Shown here: in pieces, positions 22,402-63,846 of the stretch
Layout: every line of letters starts with the position of its first letter
Numbering within the stretch: the first letter of the stretch is position 1
Assembly (NCBI GenBank): GCA_050010515.1
Contig: JBEKKX010000010.1
Span: 1-64,000, forward strand
DNA: 64,000 bases
From: Candidatus Bathyarchaeia archaeon
Lineage (GTDB): Archaea; Thermoproteota; Bathyarchaeia; Bathyarchaeales; Bathycorpusculaceae
Direction: 5' to 3'
Made by a program: the position numbers and the translations under genes
Notes under the pieces: model-generated
The model's input: only the letters and a program-made list of their open reading frames with translations
The model's database searches: none
Told to the model about the DNA's origin: nothing

Positions 22402-22578
22402 GTTTTTTCGCCTATCAGGAAGAGGGAATGTTTTTTGGTCGGTTTAAGTTTTTGCTTCTTTTTTGCGTTATGTAAGGAAAAACACGTCGGTTTTAACCGT
22501 GAATTTTTAAACGAATCAGCCATTAACTTAATATACTTTTCAGTTGAATTTCCCTCATAAGAATTGAGGGAAAAATGT

Positions 22579-24450
22579 ATGTTTGCTTATGCAGGAAAAA
22601 TTTTACATGTTAACCTCACAACTGGAGAAATAAAAACCGAGCCATTATCAGAAGATATGGCTAAACAGTACATCGGCGGAATAGGATTAGGCATACGCTT
22701 ACTTATGGACAATTCAAAACCAGGCACAGATGCCTTTGACCCAGATAACCCATTAATTTACTGCTCTGCTCCACTTAGCGGCACCATGGGTCCAACCGCT
22801 GGAAACGGTTACGCTGTTGTCTCCAAATCACCTGCCACAGGCGGAGTAGGCGAAGCCAAAGCACACGGGTTCTTTGGTCCAGATCTTAAACGTGCAGGAT
22901 ACGATGCAGTTATCATCACTGGCAAAGCACCAAAATTATCTTACCTCTGGATTGACGATGACAAAGTTGAAATCCGAAATGCTGAATACCTAAAGTACGC
23001 AACACCTAACGATACTGACCATAAAATCCGAGATGAACTCGGCGACTTTTACATCCGCGTTTCAGCCATCGGTGAATCTGGCGAAAAACTTTGCCGTTTT
23101 GCAGCAATCATAAATGACGAGTTCCGTGCAATTGGAAGAAGCGGCATGGGCGGAGTTATGGGCTCCAAAAACCTCAAGGCAGTCGCTGTCCGCGGAACAC
23201 ATGATGTTAACGTAGCAAACCTTGAAGGGTTCAAAGAATTTATCAAAATGATTCATGAACGCATGAAGGGTCCATCAACCAAGAAATACAAAACTTTAGG
23301 CACACCCGAGAACGTTCTTGTTCTCAACTCGCTTTCAGCTTTGGCAACGAGGAACTGGACTAACGCCACTTTTGAAGGCGCAGACAAAGTCAGTGGTGAA
23401 TACTTAAACGAGCACTATGTAAAGAAAATTGTCGGTTGCGCAACCTGCGGCATGCGTTGCGACCACATTGCAGTTGTGCCAGAAGGACCATACAAGGGTT
23501 CAACTTCAAGGCTTGAATTCGAGTGCCTCTGGAGCATGGGACCATTATGCGGTATTGACCGATTAGACGCTATTATTGAAGCTATGCGAATCGTTAATGA
23601 ATACGGCATGGACGGCATATCCATCGGTGTCGTCGTCGCATTTGCCATGGATCTCTATGAGCACGGCATAATCACAAAAGAGCAAACTGACGGCATTGAT
23701 CTTCGCTTCGGAAATGCTGAAGCGCTCATAGCCATAATTCACAAAATCGGCAAACGCGAAGGCTGGCTAGGCAATATACTTGCGGAAGGAGTAGCAAAAG
23801 GTGCAGAATTAATCGGCGGAGACGCATACAAGTACGCTTGCCACATTAAAGGCTTAGAATTACCAGGCTATGACCTTAGAACGCTAAAGACTGCGGCACT
23901 TGGCTTTAGTGTCTCGTTCCGTGGTGCATGCCACCTCAGAAACGGAGCTTACTCACCTGACGTTAAAGGCAAAACAAACCGCTTCAAGATTGAGAAAGGA
24001 AGAGGCAAAATAATCGCGGACGAAGGCAACATGTACAACATCATCGACTCACTTATCGTTTGCAAGTTCAGCAGAGGCACATACTACGACGGTTGGAAGG
24101 ACTTGGCAAACTATTACACATTAGCCACAGGACTACCTATGACTCCAGAAGAAATGACCAAAGACGGCGAACGCATAGAGAACCTTGCAAGACTCTTCAA
24201 CATCCGAGAAGGCAAAGGCACACGCAAATATGATGATGTACCTTACAAGATAAAGAATTATCCAGTGCCAGATGAGGGACCAGCCAAAGGCGCCTGCGTA
24301 AACGATGAAGAAATGGGAATAGGCTTAGATGATTACTACTCTGTCAGAGGCTGGACTGCCGACGGAGTGCCAACAACTGAGAAGCTCAAAGCGCTAGGTC
24401 TCGGAGACTTAGCGTATGTTACTGAGAAAGCAACCACAGGAGGCGCATAG
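22579..24450 (+). CDS. aor: Tungsten-dependent aldehyde:ferredoxin oxidoreductase family protein
   Basis: KSPATG, GRSGMGGVMGSKNLKA, CATCGMRC, EFE, GMDGIS, RGACH, DSLIVCKF. Confidence 0.92.
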   Translation: MFAYAGKILHVNLTTGEIKTEPLSEDMAKQYIGGIGLGIRLLMDNSKPGTDAFDPDNPLIYCSAPLSGTMGPTAGNGYAVVSKSPATGGVGEAKAHGFFGPDLKRAGYDAVIITGKAPKLSYLWIDDDKVEIRNAEYLKYATPNDTDHKIRDELGDFYIRVSAIGESGEKLCRFAAIINDEFRAIGRSGMGGVMGSKNLKAVAVRGTHDVNVANLEGFKEFIKMIHERMKGPSTKKYKTLGTPENVLVLNSLSALATRNWTNATFEGADKVSGEYLNEHYVKKIVGCATCGMRCDHIAVVPEGPYKGSTSRLEFECLWSMGPLCGIDRLDAIIEAMRIVNEYGMDGISIGVVVAFAMDLYEHGIITKEQTDGIDLRFGNAEALIAIIHKIGKREGWLGNILAEGVAKGAELIGGDAYKYACHIKGLELPGYDLRTLKTAALGFSVSFRGACHLRNGAYSPDVKGKTNRFKIEKGRGKIIADEGNMYNIIDSLIVCKFSRGTYYDGWKDLANYYTLATGLPMTPEEMTKDGERIENLARLFNIREGKGTRKYDDVPYKIKNYPVPDEGPAKGACVNDEEMGIGLDDYYSVRGWTADGVPTTEKLKALGLGDLAYVTEKATTGGA

Positions 24451-55880: not shown

Positions 55881-56666
55881 ATGCGTCAAGTGGACATGGT
55901 GAGGCTTGACTTATCAACTGGGAAGGCGGAGATAACAAAGGATTGTGTTGCTGAAGAAGTCCCCCTTCAAATCTCGTTAAATGATGTTTATACGTTTGTG
56001 ATTTGGTGTTCTCCCTCGCAGTTTAAGGAGCTTGCAGTCGGCTATTTGCTTGCCGAGGACATTTTACGGGGGGTTGACGAAATCGAATCCTTAAGCTCCA
56101 GTGAGAAGGAGAGCAGTTGCCAGGTTAAGCTAAAGGCAAGCGTGGATTTGGATGAGCGAATGAAAAACTCACGCCGAAGCACCCGCATCATCCCCCTCAT
56201 CAAAGCCAGCACATCGCCCTACCAGCATGACGAGCAAATACCCGTCGTAAAATCGCAGCTGAAAATTAAAGCACAAGTTATCCTAGACGCAATAAACCAA
56301 ATCAATAGCCTTGCTAGGGGTTTTAAGGAAACTGGGGGGCTGCATGACTCCGCCATTTTCAAGTCAGACGGCACAATCGTGGCTTTCTCCGAGGATGTGG
56401 GAAGGCACAACACCGTTGACAAAGTCATAGGTCAGGCGTCACTAAACAAAGAGGACTTCACCCAGTGTTTCATGATAATAACTGGGCGGGTGCCAGGCGA
56501 CATGATTTATAAAGCGGCAAAAGTTGGCTTGCCCATCGTTGCTTCCACGGCTGCTGTTCTTAACTCAGGCATTTCCTCAGCTGAAAAAGCCAACATTGCC
56601 CTAGTAGGGTTTGTACGTGGAAAACGCATGAACATCTACACTGGGCTCGAAAGAATAATCATTTAA
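55881..56666 (+). CDS. fdhD: Formate dehydrogenase accessory sulfurtransferase
   Basis: EEVPL, LAVGYL, TGGLH, EDVGRHNTVDKVIG, GFVRG. Confidence 0.9.
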   Translation: MRQVDMVRLDLSTGKAEITKDCVAEEVPLQISLNDVYTFVIWCSPSQFKELAVGYLLAEDILRGVDEIESLSSSEKESSCQVKLKASVDLDERMKNSRRSTRIIPLIKASTSPYQHDEQIPVVKSQLKIKAQVILDAINQINSLARGFKETGGLHDSAIFKSDGTIVAFSEDVGRHNTVDKVIGQASLNKEDFTQCFMIITGRVPGDMIYKAAKVGLPIVASTAAVLNSGISSAEKANIALVGFVRGKRMNIYTGLERIII

Positions 56667-59053: not shown

Positions 59054-59653
59054 TCAGTTAACAGTTTTTGCTGGGTTTGTTCTGTGCTTTTCTAATTGTT
59101 TTTTTATTAGTTCTACGAGTTTTTGCCCGTCTTCGGGAACCTTAATTATTGGTATGTTAGTGTAGGTTAGGTTGCTTGTGTTTTGGGCTATTATGCCTGC
59201 AATCGCTAATATCGGCTGAATTGTGCCCTCTAAAGTCTGTTCGAGGCCATTTTGGTCTTTTGCAGTAATAATCTTGGGTACGTCTTGCCTTTTAGCGATT
59301 AAACTGTGGAAGCCTTCAATGAAAACAATGTCGAGTTTTTCTTGTTCAAGTAGAGCGATTATTTTGTCTAAATCGTTGAGCGCCATCTGGGTTTTCTTAA
59401 TGATGTCTATTTCTTCAGGTGAGATTGCTACGATTACTTTGGCGCCTGCTTTAGCGTATCTCCAAGTGTTAGTGCCCTCTTTATCCATCGAAAAACCTTT
59501 GTGGTGGACATGTTTTATTGAGCCGATTTTGTAGCCTTCGGCTGAGAGGTGAGAAATTAAGTATTCTAAGGTTACTGTTTTTCCTGAACCGCTCACGCCG
59601 ACAGCGGCAATAACTAAAACCGTACCGGGTTCACGCTCCTGTTTGAAAATCAA
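59054..59653 (-). CDS. mobB: Molybdopterin-guanine dinucleotide biosynthesis protein B (copy 1)
   Basis: GVSGSGKT, IKHVHH, AGA, IEGF. Confidence 0.88.
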   Translation of the reverse strand: MIFKQEREPGTVLVIAAVGVSGSGKTVTLEYLISHLSAEGYKIGSIKHVHHKGFSMDKEGTNTWRYAKAGAKVIVAISPEEIDIIKKTQMALNDLDKIIALLEQEKLDIVFIEGFHSLIAKRQDVPKIITAKDQNGLEQTLEGTIQPILAIAGIIAQNTSNLTYTNIPIIKVPEDGQKLVELIKKQLEKHRTNPAKTVN

Positions 59654-59748
59654 TTTGCTTGGCTTTATAAATTGTGCCTCATTTTTTGTTTTTATGCATT
59701 AAACAATATATGGCTCATTTACCGTACAAGCTTGATAGGTGCAAACAT

Positions 59749-60255
59749 TTGCCAAAACTTGTTGCGGTTGTCGGGGGGAAGCATTCGGGAAAAACCACGG
59801 TGATTGAGCATTTAACATCGGAGCTTAAACGTCGCGGTTACCATGTTGGAGCAATCAAAGAGATGGTTCGCATCCCAACTTTGGATACCCCCGCCACTGA
59901 AACCGACAGGTACAGCAATGCAGGAGCAGAAATAATAGTTGCAGTTCCACGAGATGAGACAGTAGTATTTATCAAAAAACGGCTTACTGTAAAAGAGGTT
60001 TTACCATATCTTGAAGGGTTAGATTATGTTATTTTAGAAGGCTTCGAGCAAGAGAGAACGGTTCCGAAGATAATTGCGGCAAAAACGGCTGATGAAGTAA
60101 AGGGCTACTTGGATGGCTTAGTCATTGCCGTTTCAGGTTTAATAATGGAGTCTGATGATGAACGAAAGAAAGCTGAAGGGTTTCAGATTCCGATGTTTAA
60201 AAGTCTAACTCAAGCTGGAGAACTTGCTGATTTAGTAGAGCAAAAACAACGTTAA
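59749..60255 (+). CDS. mobB: Molybdopterin-guanine dinucleotide biosynthesis protein B (copy 2)
   Basis: GGKHSGKTT, DT..TETDRY..AGA, LEGF; probable TTG start at 59749. Confidence 0.8.
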   Translation: MPKLVAVVGGKHSGKTTVIEHLTSELKRRGYHVGAIKEMVRIPTLDTPATETDRYSNAGAEIIVAVPRDETVVFIKKRLTVKEVLPYLEGLDYVILEGFEQERTVPKIIAAKTADEVKGYLDGLVIAVSGLIMESDDERKKAEGFQIPMFKSLTQAGELADLVEQKQR

Positions 60256-60276: not shown

Positions 60277-60780
60277 TTAGCTGGCTTCGATTACTACGAC
60301 GCCTTCGACCCACCTTTGCGCATACTGATCATTACCTATGATAAGCCGAAATGGTCCTTCGCCACCGTTTTTGAGGGGCGTCAAGAGTTTGCCGTCTTTC
60401 TGGTAAGCAATTATGGTGTTTTGTCTCATTGCATCTTGCATTGAAATTGTAGTTCCGTAACCGTCTGAAGCTTGAATGTAAACTGAAGTGGCATTTGACG
60501 ATACATGGGCTTGTTCCAGCAGTGTTCCAAGAGGAACGCCCGTGTAGTTGAAGACGCCGTTAGCTGAAGGTTGACCGCTTGAGGATAAGGTAACTTGAAC
60601 AGTCACTGGTGTGAACGTTTGAAGTTGACTTAAAGTAACGTTCAAAGGATTGCTTACTTGTCCCTTGATCTGAAGGGTTCCTTCCTGCACCGCAGCTGGC
60701 CGCGTATAAAAATAGAGGGGAACTGCTGCCGCAACTAAAACAATAATCAATGCCAAGGCGATTTTTTTATTTTTGTTCAA
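60277..60780 (-). CDS. Membrane-anchored sulfite-oxidase-fold molybdopterin-binding domain protein lacking the Mo-ligating Cys
   Basis: N-terminal TM; L.I.G.V, YTGVPL, ASDGY, IAYQKDG, GPFRL, RWV; no Cys in the protein. Confidence 0.8.
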   Translation of the reverse strand: MNKNKKIALALIIVLVAAAVPLYFYTRPAAVQEGTLQIKGQVSNPLNVTLSQLQTFTPVTVQVTLSSSGQPSANGVFNYTGVPLGTLLEQAHVSSNATSVYIQASDGYGTTISMQDAMRQNTIIAYQKDGKLLTPLKNGGEGPFRLIIGNDQYAQRWVEGVVVIEAS

Positions 60781-61351
60781 TGTTTATTTTTCCTCCGAAA
60801 CCGATTTTTCCTATTCTAACGAGAAGCATGTTTGCGATGAATCCGCCTATGCTGCCGCTTATAGCAGCAATAACAGCCAAAAATGACAAGACAACCCAGG
60901 GTAATACGAGAACTAATGCGCCGACCAAGACGGTTCCGACAGCGTTAGCAATTGCCGTAGCTATCATACAGCAGGGTGCGCAGCATGCTTTGTGTCTTGA
61001 GAGCAGAAAGAAAGCGTCTATGGCTAAGCCTGGCGCAAGGTAGATGACGAATGATAAGAGCCCGAAGTTGCCGAAAGGCATGACTAAGCTGATGAATGCT
61101 TGAGTTAGCGAGGTCATTGAGGCAGCGCCTACCTTACGCACGAAGCCGAACGCCAAAACTGGCCACATCATGTAGACTCCGCCAGCGACGGCGCCAGCTG
61201 GAATGTAGAGTGGCTCGGTTATTACGGCAACGAGCGGGTGGACGATGTTTTTTGTTGCTAAGCCTAAACTGGCGAAGAGCGTCATTAGTACTAGGTCTAT
61301 GGTTGCGATTTTCAGGTTGCTTTTGTGCATGCTTGGAATGTTTGGATTCAC
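60767..61351 (-). CDS. ECF transporter S component (YkoE-like)
   Basis: About six TM, DLVLMTLFASLG, VRKVGAA, PGLAID; overlaps previous gene. Confidence 0.75.
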   Translation of the reverse strand: MNPNIPSMHKSNLKIATIDLVLMTLFASLGLATKNIVHPLVAVITEPLYIPAGAVAGGVYMMWPVLAFGFVRKVGAASMTSLTQAFISLVMPFGNFGLLSFVIYLAPGLAIDAFFLLSRHKACCAPCCMIATAIANAVGTVLVGALVLVLPWVVLSFLAVIAAISGSIGGFIANMLLVRIGKIGFGGKINIEQK

Positions 61352-61361
61352 GGCTCTACTC

Positions 61362-61385
61362 CGATGTTATCAGTTTGTAACATCG
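61362..61385. promoter_or_regulatory. Palindromic operator upstream of ECF S-component gene
   Basis: CGATGTTA-N8-TAACATCG, 10 bp upstream of the start codon. Confidence 0.6.
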
Positions 61386-61455
61386 CTAAATAAACCTTCT
61401 GCTAGAACAAAAATCTATATCTGTATTAATTACCCGTCAAAGGCTGCCTGTGCAA

Positions 61456-61785
61456 TCAAGGAAGTTCTTTCAAAACTCCGTCAAGCCGAGCCTGGGCTTT
61501 CCTATACCGCACAACTAGCTCTTTTCCGAAATCTGTAACCTCAGATGATCCGCCGCCCTTGGCTCCACCGCGAACCCGCGTAACCAGCGACTGCCCAAGA
61601 CGCTCCTCCGCCAAAGTGATCCTGTGCAATGCGTATCGATATGACATCTCCAAATGCTTTGAAGCCTCCAAAAGTGAATGATACTTTTCAATCGTCTCCA
61701 GCAACTCGGCTAAGCCGTCGCCGAAAACTGATTCACCCTTCTCGTTAACCATCCAAAGCTTAACCTCATAACGCAGGGGGCTCAC
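61456..61785 (-). CDS. ModE-family winged-helix regulator (DNA-binding domain only)
   Basis: VFGDGLAELLETIEKYHSL..ASKHLEMSYRYA..LVTRVRGGAKGGGSEVT. Confidence 0.88.
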   Translation of the reverse strand: MSPLRYEVKLWMVNEKGESVFGDGLAELLETIEKYHSLLEASKHLEMSYRYALHRITLAEERLGQSLVTRVRGGAKGGGSSEVTDFGKELVVRYRKAQARLDGVLKELP

Positions 61786-61843: not shown

Positions 61844-62872
61844 TTACGCTTCTGTAACCTTAACGTTCTTGAGAACCTTGACGCTCCCGGCGCCTTCAGT
61901 CACGTAGCCAACTTTGAAATGTTTAACTTTCCGTTTATTCAACTCATCCTGCAAGTCATCTGAGTCTTCTTTAGCCACTGCGATTAGCATTCCTCCTGCA
62001 GTTTCCTTCGCTTCACCAGTCAACAATGGGTAACCGAAAAGTTCCGCCAAGATTGGCGTCCCACGAATCACCGCCAACTGATCAATCACAATGTCAACTT
62101 TGCCCAGAACCGCCATGTTTCCGGCATGACCTTTAAGACCAAAGCCTGTCACGTCAGTTGCTGCGTGAACTGGAACTTGCTGCATGGCTTCAGCAACCGG
62201 CTTATTAGAACTAATCATTTCATCAATGGCTTCATTAACAGCTGCTTCAACAAGTTCTTCTGGAACCTCTCTGAGTAATTCTCGTCCTTCATCCTCTTTC
62301 CTCAGTCTGTAGGCAGCCATCGCAGGCGCAATCCCAAGCGGCTTAGTCAAAAACAGCCTGTCACCCGCCTTCGCGCCACGGGTATACACAATCTTTTCGG
62401 GGTCACCAACACCAGTCGCTGCGCCACCAATAATTGGCCAAGGATTCCGAATCGTGTGACCGCCCAAAACGGGTGCACCCATTTCGCGGCAAAAATCCCC
62501 AAAACCCTTCAACATGCCCACAGCTAACTCGTCAGGCATGTTCTCGGGAAACGCCATAATCGACAAAACACTGACAATATTGGTAACCGCCAAAGCGTAA
62601 ATGTCACTCGTCACGTTGTTTCCAGCAATCCTGCCTTGAATTTCAGGTTCATCAACCATAGGAGTGAAGAAATCAAGCGTATTTAGTATTGCAAGGTTAT
62701 CGGCGATTTTTACTACGCTGGAGTTCTCCCAAGGACCAGCCAACACATCCTCGCCGAAATCAGCCGTCAAACCAGCTTTATCCAGCAATTCGCCTAACTG
62801 GTACTGTGGAAGCTTGCAACTGCAACCATGCACTGGAACAACTTTAGTTAACCTATAACCCAACCTTCTCAT
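61844..62872 (-). CDS. selD: Selenide,water dikinase (Cys form) / SelD-like protein
   Basis: HGCSCK, DFFTP, SDIYA, GGHTI, LTKPLG, TDVTGFGL.GH, ETAGGML. Confidence 0.9.
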   Translation of the reverse strand: MRRLGYRLTKVVPVHGCSCKLPQYQLGELLDKAGLTADFGEDVLAGPWENSSVVKIADNLAILNTLDFFTPMVDEPEIQGRIAGNNVTSDIYALAVTNIVSVLSIMAFPENMPDELAVGMLKGFGDFCREMGAPVLGGHTIRNPWPIIGGAATGVGDPEKIVYTRGAKAGDRLFLTKPLGIAPAMAAYRLRKEDEGRELLREVPEELVEAAVNEAIDEMISSNKPVAEAMQQVPVHAATDVTGFGLKGHAGNMAVLGKVDIVIDQLAVIRGTPILAELFGYPLLTGEAKETAGGMLIAVAKEDSDDLQDELNKRKVKHFKVGYVTEGAGSVKVLKNVKVTEA

Positions 62873-62910
62873 TTCTCCTAAACTTCAGTCCTCAGTTTTC
62901 TCATATAGGC

Positions 62911-63135
62911 TTAATATTTTTTTATTATTATTCGAAACTCATTCTCTGATTTGGACGTTTCAACCACTTCATGCCCATTATTTTTTACCCAACGCTGAAT
63001 ATTCTCAAACTCCAATTCGCCTTCACCAACCACCTCAAGCAACTGCCCAGAAGCCATGTTTCCGAGCTTGCGCTTTGTAAACGCTACAGGCATGGGGCAC
63101 ATTTTTCCCTTAACATCCAATCTTTCAATATCCAA
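62911..63135 (-). CDS. tusA: TusA/SirA-family sulfur carrier
   Basis: LDVKGKMCPMP. Confidence 0.88.
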   Translation of the reverse strand: MDIERLDVKGKMCPMPVAFTKRKLGNMASGQLLEVVGEGELEFENIQRWVKNNGHEVVETSKSENEFRIIIKKY

Positions 63136-63144
63136 AAATTGTCA

Positions 63145-63510
63145 CTAGAAAACTATTACCTTGTCACTATTAACTGTCCACTCAACAAGTTCATGGACAG
63201 TCGCGATTTTTACCCCATCAATCAAGTCAGCTTGGGTTAAGCCGCGTGCTTCAACGCAGACAACGCAGGCTTTCACTTCAGTACCGCCTTTCATTAAGTC
63301 TTCTAGCATTTGGCCGTAATTGATTAAGCCTGAAGCAGGTTTTTGCCCCTTTTTTGCAAGGTACACCCCGTTTTCAAACAACCAAATTCTTACTTTATGT
63401 CCTTCCACGTCGCAGGTCCAAGCGAATCTTAAAGCTGAGAGTGCACGTTCTTTTGCGTATGGGGCTTCATTTATTATTAATGTGAATGTTACCATGTCAT
63501 TCAACCTCAA
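63145..63510 (-). CDS. DsrE/TusD-family sulfur relay protein
   Basis: APYAKERALSALRFA, NGVYLA, CVVCVEARG, SDKVIVF. Confidence 0.85.
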   Translation of the reverse strand: MRLNDMVTFTLIINEAPYAKERALSALRFAWTCDVEGHKVRIWLFENGVYLAKKGQKPASGLINYGQMLEDLMKGGTEVKACVVCVEARGLTQADLIDGVKIATVHELVEWTVNSDKVIVF

Positions 63511-63528
63511 ATTTTCTTATGATAATTT

Positions 63529-63846
63529 TTATGTTTCTTCTTCAATCTTTACACAGATTTTGCCTGATATAATTTTATGCTCATAGATTGTTAACTTTAT
63601 CGCTGGTTCATCTTCATATTCGCCTGTTTTTAGATTAAAGCGCCACTCATGGCAAGGGCAAACAATTACTAAGCCCTCAAGGGTGCCGCCTGAAAAAGCA
63701 CAGCCCATGTGTGGACAGCGGTTGTCGATGGCGAAAATTTGGCCAGACTGTTTAATCAGTAAAACTGGTGAGCCTTCAACTGACACAAGCTTCATTGCGC
63801 CTTCTTGTAGATCTTTTTCTTTTAAAACAGGAACAAAATTACTCAT
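63529..63846 (-). CDS. Rieske [2Fe-2S] ferredoxin
   Basis: CPHMG...CPCHEWRF. Confidence 0.9.
   Translation of the reverse strand: MSNFVPVLKEKDLQEGAMKLVSVEGSPVLLIKQSGQIFAIDNRCPHMGCAFSGGTLEGLVIVCPCHEWRFNLKTGEYEDEPAIKLTIYEHKIISGKICVKIEEET

Follow-up and report, generated by a model that had tools for sequence, protein, structure and literature searches.

A candidate ECF-type importer for tungsten or molybdenum pterin cofactors, with an external capture domain, in Bathyarchaeia and Bacillota

Genes and features of the locus

The window, by which we mean the whole stretch of DNA analysed here (64,000 nucleotides, positions 1 to 64,000 of contig JBEKKX010000010.1, assembly GCA_050010515.1, Candidatus Bathyarchaeia archaeon), carries on its minus strand two genes that overlap by 14 nt, one for the substrate-specific membrane subunit (S-component) of a transporter of the energy-coupling factor (ECF) class and one for a membrane-anchored protein with the sulfite oxidase (SUOX) fold. 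A preliminary description, made from the letters of the window alone, had reported this overlapping pair downstream of a ModE-type helix-turn-helix (HTH) gene, and all three open reading frames (ORFs) were recovered on the minus strand (Table 1). It had further proposed that a dead-enzyme capture protein works together with the S-component in cofactor salvage. That proposal is now supported by conservation of the pair in two domains of life, by gene fusions, by operons that include EcfAA'T and MobB, by riboswitches, and by enrichment of the system in genomes that lack MoaA and MoaC and keep pterin enzymes. Close homologues of the window proteins bear the names of Bathyarchaeia metagenome-assembled genomes.

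S-component. The 194-residue protein matches PF09819 (E 6.6e-15, 55.8 bits, cut-off 25.2) and none of the NCBIfam models, and its gene is the only PF09819 gene in the genome. The AlphaFold2 model (predicted local distance difference test score, pLDDT, 86.6) has six helices, at residues 8-48, 52-71, 76-90, 99-118, 125-147 and 152-183. Its best solved match in Foldseek is 5edl, the YkoE structure (E 1.2e-4, TM-score 0.67), followed by RibU, PanT, ThiT and the biotin S-component 4dve; at the level of sequence the likeness to YkoE is remote (profile E 0.018). Matches in the ESM Atlas are generically named, for example 'ECF transporter S component family protein'. Residues 120-128 read H-K-x-C-C-x-x-C-C, and the pattern H-[KR]-x-C-C-x-x-C-[CAS] is kept in most of 71 archaeal and bacterial homologues (C127 in 92%). 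In the model this motif occupies the loop between transmembrane (TM) helices 4 and 5 and the start of TM5, and we take the loop to lie on the cytoplasmic side, as in the standard S-component topology. Selenocysteine was considered for the homologues and rejected, the in-frame TGA being an ordinary stop codon near the C-terminus.

SUOX-like protein. The 167-residue partner matches PF00174 (Oxidored_molyb; E 2.2e-19, 70 bits, cut-off 24). The absence of cysteine claimed for it in the preliminary description is confirmed, with none in 167 residues, and profile alignment sets Ser67 against the Cys that ligates Mo in canonical SUOX domains; without that ligand the domain would neither fix a metal nor catalyse. 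The pterin-pocket motifs that had been listed (TGVPL, DGY, GPFRL and WV) are present in the translation, several of their columns being among the best conserved in the family (G81, D106, G107, Y108, P143 and W157). In the AlphaFold2 model (pLDDT 93.8) an N-terminal helix at residues 3-25 is followed by a SUOX-fold domain, for which Foldseek returns SorA (6.6e-10), YedY (5e-9) and also sulfite oxidase, with E-values overall from 6.6e-10 to 3e-6. PruR proteins (7kom, 7kos, 7kou, 7rkb and 7kp2) are covered almost fully, with TM-scores by target of 0.74-0.78, and PruR-type chains are also the top sequence matches in the Protein Data Bank (7kom, 1.7e-5; 7kos, 5e-3). PruR has no Mo-ligand Cys and binds tetrahydromonapterin, whose pterin ring is stacked between a Tyr and a Trp (available text of PMC11194511). 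By our reading of the alignment, Y108 and W157 of the window protein would correspond to the pterin-sandwiching Y104 and W160 of PruR. Across the 173 SUOX-like domains of the loci examined below, the D-G-Y and W columns are retained (Tyr at the Y108 column in 149 domains, Trp at the W157 column in 111), and Cys stands in the Mo-ligand column in none. The Pro-Trp motif found at the former Cys position in PruR is not kept, the aligned window residues being Pro71-Ser72. No DcpA-type GGDEF-EAL gene was found in the window neighbourhood or among those recurrent gene clusters that were annotated with Pfam.

Regulator. The 109-residue product of the upstream gene matches the ModE N-terminal repressor model TIGR00637 (E 8.6e-15; 54.6 bits, below the cut-off of 98.5) and the HTH family PF00126 (HTH_1, E 5e-5). 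The ModE-like label of the preliminary description may apply to the N-terminal domain, at a score below the cut-off, and does not extend to a Mop/TOBE molybdate-binding domain, for which the protein has no Pfam or NCBIfam match.

Table 1. Positions in the window of the genes and sites discussed
Feature	Position	Strand	Basis
ModE-N-like winged-HTH regulator, 109 aa; presumed local repressor	61456..61785	-	TIGR00637, PF00126
TTTATTT, TATA-box-like; putative promoter of the S-component gene	61388..61394	-	sequence reading
Palindromic operator candidate, CGATGTTA-N8-TAACATCG	61362..61385	.	10 nt 5' of the S-component GTG start
YkoE-like ECF S-component, distinct subfamily, 194 aa, GTG start	60767..61351	-	PF09819
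Cys-less SUOX/PruR-fold membrane-anchored extracytoplasmic protein, 167 aa, TTG start; proposed pterin-cofactor capture	60277..60780	-	PF00174
MobB-family P-loop protein, 193 aa; convergent with the SUOX-like gene	59674..60255	+	PF03205, TIGR00176
Second MobB, 199 aa; heads the mobB-mobA-like operon	59054..59653	-	PF03205, 103.5 bits
MobA-like NTP transferase, 362 aa	57954..59042	-	PF12804, 106 bits
MoeA metal-insertion enzyme, 425 aa	56670..57947	+	PF03453, PF00994, PF03454
FdhD/NarQ-family sulfur carrier for bis-molybdopterin guanine dinucleotide enzymes	55881..56666	+	PF02634, 218.8 bits
Selenium/sulfur relay cluster: SelD (selenophosphate synthetase), then TusA-like, DsrE-like and Rieske proteins	61844..63846		SelD, 342 bits
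Aldehyde:ferredoxin oxidoreductase (AOR); likely cofactor client	22564..24450		AFOR_N, AFOR_C

Neighbouring genes. The moeA/mobAB/fdhD/fwd locus of the preliminary description was found as described, with FdhD, MoeA, the MobA-like protein and two MobB proteins identified and fwdDBAC also in the neighbourhood. The 193-residue MobB scores 72 bits against PF03205 and 81.5 bits against TIGR00176, its top NCBIfam model being the MobB/FeS-domain type NF011064. It is 35% identical to the MobB of the Bacillota operons described below, and the 199-residue MobB is 31% identical; these similarities are about equal, and we dropped an attempt to pick one of the two as the ortholog of the Bacillota gene. 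The MobA-like protein matches NF001457 (MobA, E 5e-23) under the cut-off. Clusters of MobA-like (c14), MoeA (c11) and FdhD (c17) genes are present at 10, 11 and 8 archaeal loci, respectively. The selenium/sulfur relay cluster lies directly upstream of the regulator gene, and a SelD-sized cluster (c10) recurs at 11 archaeal loci.

Window genome. The genome to which the window belongs (G000) has four AOR matches, one of them in the window. The EcfAA'T components presupposed by the preliminary description are encoded in a shared EcfA-EcfA'-EcfT module at C50:6011-8537, where a CbiQ/EcfT match is flanked by two ORFs of the ATP-binding cassette (ABC) type; in Bacillota, as shown below, they belong to the same operon as the S-component. 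A second ECF-like set lies on contig C46. The genome also has a Mod/Wtp-type ABC transporter at C16:33093-36120, consisting of an SBP_bac_11 protein, a permease and an ATPase with a TOBE domain. Elsewhere, at C8:9341-10884 (L122), a TM-anchored 305-residue SUOX-like protein retains Cys in the canonical ligand column and may be a true surface molybdoenzyme; an anchored protein of 209 residues without a family match comes next.

Conservation, regulation and distribution of the pair

Relatives were sought with an alignment of the S-component (A4) in one genome per species, and 350 were found. The best 79 of these 350 loci were examined using our own ORF calls, the A1 and A2 profiles, BLAST clustering, and Pfam on the cluster representatives. 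They were split provisionally by locus number into 35 Bathyarchaeia-type and 44 bacterial (Bacillota) loci; three bins in the Bathyarchaeia-type group and one just outside it carry other titles, probably through binning. Loci L045, L061 and L062, which are Bathyarchaeia-like (58-87% identity to the window protein), occur in Saccharibacteria, Nanoarchaeia and Limnocylindrales bins and are probably binning contamination rather than gene transfer.

An S-component ORF was called at 34 of the 35 Bathyarchaeia-type loci and at 40 of the 44 bacterial loci. At all 34 of the former and 38 of the 40 latter (72/74 in total) there is a SUOX-like gene no more than 3.5 kb away from this ORF, and at 33 and 28 loci, respectively, one no more than 250 nt away. 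Single-chain fusions of the S-component with a SUOX-like domain occur as well (P0243, P0274, L068, L091 and L097). Co-folding of the window pair, as suggested in the preliminary description, gave weak support for an interaction, with a score of 0.35 against 0.01 for the best of three controls. Applied to 80 solved complexes and 110 mismatched pairs, the mark is passed by 58 and 2, respectively, and passing scores of 0.60 or less were obtained for only 7 of the 80 solved complexes and for both of the passing mismatches; the runs on the window pair agreed in at least 0% of contacts, with a partner pLDDT of at least 73.

The gene order in Bathyarchaeia is ModE-N-like regulator, S-component, an optional tandem SUOX-like protein of about 305 residues, the 167-residue SUOX-like protein, two MobB proteins, MobA-like protein, MoeA and FdhD. 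In Bacillota one or two SUOX-like genes precede the S-component. After it come, in some operons, a lipoprotein that is SUOX-like at its N-terminus and contains an alkaline-phosphatase/phosphodiesterase domain, and then a SUOX-like protein of about 170 residues, EcfA, EcfA', EcfT, a 249-residue protein of the MobB/FeS type and an APH/Bud32-like kinase. Counted over the 40 Bacillota loci with an S-component ORF, EcfA is present at 30, EcfT at 27, MobB at 22, the lipoprotein with the phosphodiesterase domain at 17 and the kinase at 15. A gene of the MobB cluster was found within 6.5 kb of the S-component at 26/34 archaeal and 22/40 bacterial loci. Several SUOX-like proteins per Bacillota operon are membrane-anchored or lipoproteins.

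Some Bacillota operons carry further genes. A c30-cluster gene lies upstream of the S-component at L069, L073, L093 and L101, and a riboswitch (see below) was found at the first three of these and not at L101. By Pfam, L073 encodes an ApbE flavin transferase, a 534-residue fusion of FMN_bind and SUOX-like domains, and a 407-residue NapH-like polyferredoxin with FMN_bind, the last being the c30 member; these modules form an extracytosolic electron path to a Cys-less SUOX domain. Upstream of the S-component at L067:522-5943 are a DUF364/DUF4213 protein ('putative heavy-metal chelation'), a FecCD permease, an ABC ATPase, a Peripla_BP_2 protein and a protein like TiaS/'methanogenesis marker 11', and second transporter neighbourhoods of this type occur also at L078, L082, L087 and L088. 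Cluster c20 (seven loci; L086:3786-4382) consists of small membrane proteins of 156-198 residues, and in several Bacillota operons the riboswitch is followed first by a gene of this cluster.

Two kinds of regulatory element accompany the system. In the Bathyarchaeia-type loci, an orthologous 109-residue ModE-N-like gene is directly upstream of the S-component gene in 27 of 34. The palindrome CGATGTTA-N8-TAACATCG between the two genes is, in its strict form, unique to this site in the 2.38-Mb genome; loose forms number 3 in the genome, against 1-4 in shuffles. A form RTTA-N8-TAAY, mostly with CGAT/ATCG flanks, stands at a fixed position with variable spacers in 24 of 29 archaeal loci, and in those archaeal loci that were displayed TTTATTT lies at the same distance from the palindrome. 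We infer that this palindrome is the operator of the adjacent ModE-N-like protein. Since it is unique to the S-component promoter, there is no sign of ModE-like control over other Moco genes in the genome.

In Bacillota, an Rfam scan of 25 of the bacterial loci found the RF01055 riboswitch, which responds to the molybdenum or tungsten cofactor (Moco or Tuco), upstream of the operon and on its strand at 13, with scores of 62.7-78.6 bits against a gathering score of 36; the riboswitch result holds for the bacterial homologues, to which the scan applied. The only other Rfam families at these 25 loci were T-box leaders on the opposite strand at L071 and L092. Stem P3 is absent from all four of the riboswitch alignments displayed, and P3-less Moco RNAs have been tied to the tungsten cofactor (Regulski et al., PMC2408646, in the text available). 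Judged from the riboswitches and enzymes associated with the system, tungsten (Tuco, AOR) is as well indicated as molybdenum, if not better.

Distribution was evaluated in the window genome plus 41 genomes reached through the loci, a set of 42 carriers. MoaC and the MoaA C-domain were matched in the same 28 carriers, MoeA in 34, the AOR N-domain in 39, and MoaE, whose detection is weak in Bacillota, in 22. The remaining 14 carriers have neither MoaC nor the MoaA C-domain (13 of them are also without MoaE and seven without MoeA), and all 14 encode pterin enzymes: AOR in 12, enzymes of the xanthine dehydrogenase (XDH) type in three and of the dimethyl sulfoxide reductase type in seven. They include the genome of L052, which is titled a complete genome. 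Four of the 14 (L070, L071, L086 and L098) have a riboswitch before the operon; an ECF operon under a riboswitch that senses a cofactor, in an organism unable to make that cofactor, is what one classically expects of a vitamin importer.

In 151 Bacillota genomes (the phylum of G328), sampled independently, the S-component was present in 7/10 genomes that have AOR and no MoaC, 11/81 that have both, 1/26 that have MoaC and no AOR, and 0/34 that have neither; four further weak matches (~1e-16, in longer frames) were left out of these counts. The comparison of 7/10 with 11/81 has a Fisher p of 3e-4, which is indicative only. Less clear was the picture from 301 genomes sampled from the window's phylum, five of which have a close homologue of the S-component; among the 44 Bathyarchaeia of that sample it was present in 3/6 without MoaC and 2/38 with MoaC (Fisher p 0.013, with the same reservation). 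Among the Bathyarchaeia without both MoaC and the S-component, G197 has MoaA. The preliminary description had proposed co-occurrence with Moco loci and with loss of moaA and moaC as a check; the system is enriched in genomes that are without MoaA or MoaC and keep pterin enzymes.

Interpretation and alternative readings

Cofactor import is favoured by a pterin-binding fold without a catalytic ligand, by the ECF architecture, by the MobB, MobA and MoeA neighbours, by two cofactor-responsive modes of regulation and by the phyletic pattern, and it is supported at the level of comparative genomics. The S-component and the Cys-less SUOX/PruR-fold protein are, we think, probably the substrate-specific part of an ECF-type importer for Tuco or Moco, or for metal-free molybdopterin. 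The system is widespread and would most likely allow strict anaerobes to obtain this cofactor in finished form rather than by synthesis. Outside the cell, the SUOX-like domain would capture the pterin moiety of the ligand and hand the ligand to the S-component, which would be driven by the shared EcfAA'T module from C50 in the window genome and by EcfAA'T of the same operon in Bacillota. Inside the cell, MobB-family proteins together with MobA, MoeA and FdhD would deliver the cofactor to AOR, Fwd and enzymes related to them. In the S-component, the Cys cluster at the TM4-TM5 loop may hold the thiophilic metal-dithiolene part. Cofactor status would set expression, in Bathyarchaeia by way of the ModE-N-like repressor together with a palindromic operator overlapping the promoter, and in Bacillota by way of the P3-less (Tuco-type) Moco riboswitch. 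The phosphodiesterase and kinase of the Bacillota operons suggest that dinucleotide or phosphorylated forms may be processed outside the cell and re-activated inside.

A wider claim would be that the system is, for any organism, the first known importer dedicated to the intact tungsten or molybdenum pyranopterin cofactor, in which an ECF transporter works with PruR-like capture domains, to which Bacillota add a surface phosphodiesterase, a kinase and MobB processing, and that Tuco or Moco is a traded 'vitamin' in anoxic communities. We hold this claim to be about as likely as not.

Several observations weigh against cofactor import. The window contig (C10) holds no MoaA, MoaC or MoaE, in agreement with the preliminary description, which had also listed moaD (no search was made for MoaD). 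As a signal of loss, this absence fails: the window genome, 98.5% complete and a prototroph for the cofactor, has moaC and moaA on contig C25 only, moaE on C7 only, and three moeA genes, so that the local absence is not gene loss and uptake would here be a supplementary salvage route. More generally, two-thirds of the carriers (28/42), the window genome included, have MoaA and MoaC, and the system is therefore not tied to auxotrophy. Conversely, some genomes with AOR do without it. The Bathyarchaeia G133 and G216 have no MoaA, MoaC or S-component and yet 4 and 6 AOR matches, and the Bacillota G407, G418 and G449 have AOR with neither a MoaC match nor the S-component; such genomes may use another uptake route, or their assemblies may have gaps. 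A single, weak SUOX-like gene was found in G133 and in G216, and the one in G216 shares its contig with AOR genes. The p-values above overstate the case, since they treat related genomes as independent, and for most of the sampled genomes no completeness is given. The moaA and moaC genes are often adjacent, so that their joint absence counts as one event, and the weak detection of MoaE in Bacillota limits what its absence can add.

The structure of the capture domain adds to these points. PruR has a shortened cleft that probably cannot hold the whole of Moco (PMC11194511, available text), and the window protein has a short loop, as in PruR, where SorA has an insertion; this is a caveat for binding of whole Moco, and it does not fix the form of pterin that would be bound. 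A purely binding role also does not explain the ApbE, FMN_bind and NapH-like modules in a subset of operons, although these may keep the captured pterin reduced. Finally, SUOX-like surface proteins accompany an oxyanion transporter as well. At C16:30055-36120 (L121) a TM-anchored tandem Cys-less SUOX-like protein (327 residues, divergent) adjoins the Mod/Wtp-type transporter. The same locus has, in the same direction, a 632-residue TM-anchored protein without a Pfam match.

This last arrangement is among the reasons for asking whether the substrate is instead tungstate or molybdate, in which case the SUOX-like domain would bind the oxyanion or metal outside the cytoplasm and the S-component's Cys cluster would be the metal site. 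Metal-specific ECF systems exist (CbiMNQO and NikMNQO). The CCxxC motif of the S-component is conserved and thiophilic, and both Moco riboswitches and ModE-type regulators classically govern oxyanion transporters (PMC2408646, available text). We nevertheless regard oxyanion uptake as unlikely. An oxyanion alone could not serve those carriers that are without MoaA, MoaC, MoaE and MoeA and keep pterin enzymes, and a third of all carriers (14/42) are without MoaA and MoaC, seven of them also without MoeA. The window genome already has its Mod/Wtp-type ABC transporter, the nearest Cys-less relatives of the SUOX-like protein bind pterins, the pterin-stacking Tyr and Trp are conserved, and the phosphodiesterase and kinase of the operon would have no role in oxyanion uptake. 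The same phyletic pattern bears on the direction of transport. A directional ECF exporter is known in EetB/FmnA, which exports flavin adenine dinucleotide (FAD) according to the available text of PMC9973259, and this precedent counts against import; a comparable module could export Moco or Tuco to load surface redox enzymes of the SUOX fold after their Sec-dependent export. The anchored proteins and lipoproteins of the Bacillota operons, and the extracytosolic electron path formed by ApbE, FMN_bind~SUOX and NapH-like/FMN_bind modules in L073 (compare PMC8238504, in the part available), would fit such a scheme. It is very unlikely all the same, with the Mo-ligating Cys kept in none of the 173 domains and the S-component enriched in exactly those genomes that have AOR and no MoaC. 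The carriers without MoaA and MoaC, one third of the set, make no cofactor that could be exported, and export cannot work there. Riboswitch control, moreover, matches that of biosynthesis and uptake genes (PMC2408646, as available).

The substrate could also be another small pterin, of the monapterin or neopterin type, a folate or methanopterin precursor, or an unrelated vitamin such as thiamine or its hydroxymethylpyrimidine (HMP) moiety, the link to Moco genes being regulatory or coincidental. YkoE is the one member of PF09819 with a solved structure and is named as an HMP/thiamine permease protein. PruR proteins bind tetrahydromonapterin in a cleft too short for Moco, and the window protein has the same short loop. 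Against this stand the riboswitch class, which is that for Moco or Tuco, with no further Rfam match beyond the opposite-strand T-box leaders, the link of the S-component to AOR and to loss of MoaA and MoaC, and the remoteness of its sequence likeness to YkoE. The preliminary description had considered that homologous pairs might lie mostly in cobalamin or thiamine contexts; the conserved neighbours are instead MobB, MobA, MoeA and FdhD, and not thiamine or folate genes. We consider a different pterin or vitamin highly improbable, and import of Tuco, Moco or molybdopterin remains the reading that we prefer.

Significance and relation to known systems

Moco and Tuco are generally regarded as made by each cell for itself. 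The preliminary description knew of no characterised prokaryotic Moco importer, and the open literature that we searched likewise contains no ECF-type or other prokaryotic importer of Moco or Tuco, although supplementary gene lists (PMC2408646, PMC3766115) may hold a mention. A regulon survey lists no Moco transporter among its coenzyme uptake categories in the text available (PMC3766115). The available part of a 2026 review of pterin signalling has no mention of ECF systems, and that of the Bathyarchaeum tardum paper reports AOR and several cofactor deficiencies with nothing on molybdopterin.

If the importer is what we propose, it would give a direct handle on the trafficking of Moco and Tuco, and would explain how Bathyarchaeia and Clostridia without moaA, moaC, moaE or moeA use AOR, formate dehydrogenase and XDH. 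It would add a new cross-fed micronutrient to those of sediments, digesters and guts, and would suggest a supplement for the cultivation of Bathyarchaeia and syntrophic Clostridia. The binding proteins might serve to stabilise a notoriously labile cofactor. ECF transport would gain a case in which a capture protein works outside the cell, and we class the system as a probable ECF transporter whose substrate belongs to a new class and is captured by an external domain.

Among ECF transporters the present S-component is closest to the YkoE type, with which it shares the small six-helix membrane architecture, a PF09819 match above the cut-off and 5edl as the best structural match. As with other S-components, EcfA, EcfA' and EcfT are encoded with it (the Bacillota homologues) or as a shared module (the window genome). 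It differs in the conserved H-[KR]-x-C-C-x-x-C motif of its subfamily. In almost every case it also has an extracytoplasmic domain of the binding type as neighbour or fusion partner, a component not used by classical ECF transporters, and it is under a Moco riboswitch or a ModE-like regulator rather than under thiamine pyrophosphate (TPP) control. Listeria EetB/FmnA is likewise an ECF-type S/T pair for trafficking a cofactor of extracytosolic proteins, but it exports FAD and is linked to flavinylation by ApbE (PMC9973259, available text), whereas the phyletic pattern of the present system argues for import.

The capture protein resembles PruR (7kos, 7kom, 7rkb and 7kp2) in being a minimal exported SUOX fold of about 130 residues without a Mo-ligating Cys, and in the Tyr/Trp pterin-stacking pair conserved in the window family. 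At the Cys position PruR carries Pro-Trp and the window protein Ser or Pro-Ser, depending on the alignment. PruR is also proteobacterial and soluble, and is paired with the cyclic di-GMP enzyme DcpA for signalling, as far as the available text on it goes; the window protein, in contrast, is membrane-anchored, occurs in archaea and Bacillota, and is paired with a transporter and Moco genes. With SorA, YedY/MsrP, sulfite oxidase and assimilatory nitrate reductase it shares the Moco-domain fold and PF00174. Unlike these catalytic enzymes it lacks a Cys ligand, a dimerisation domain and a haem domain, its active-site loop is shortened, and it would be a Sec-type anchored protein rather than a folded holoenzyme exported by the Tat route.

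The established metal transporters of the pathway, ModABC, WtpABC and TupABC, share with the present system the pathway itself and the kinds of regulator (ModE and the Moco riboswitch). They differ in being type I ABC transporters with periplasmic binding proteins that carry molybdate or tungstate, and the window genome has one of these separately, on contig C16.

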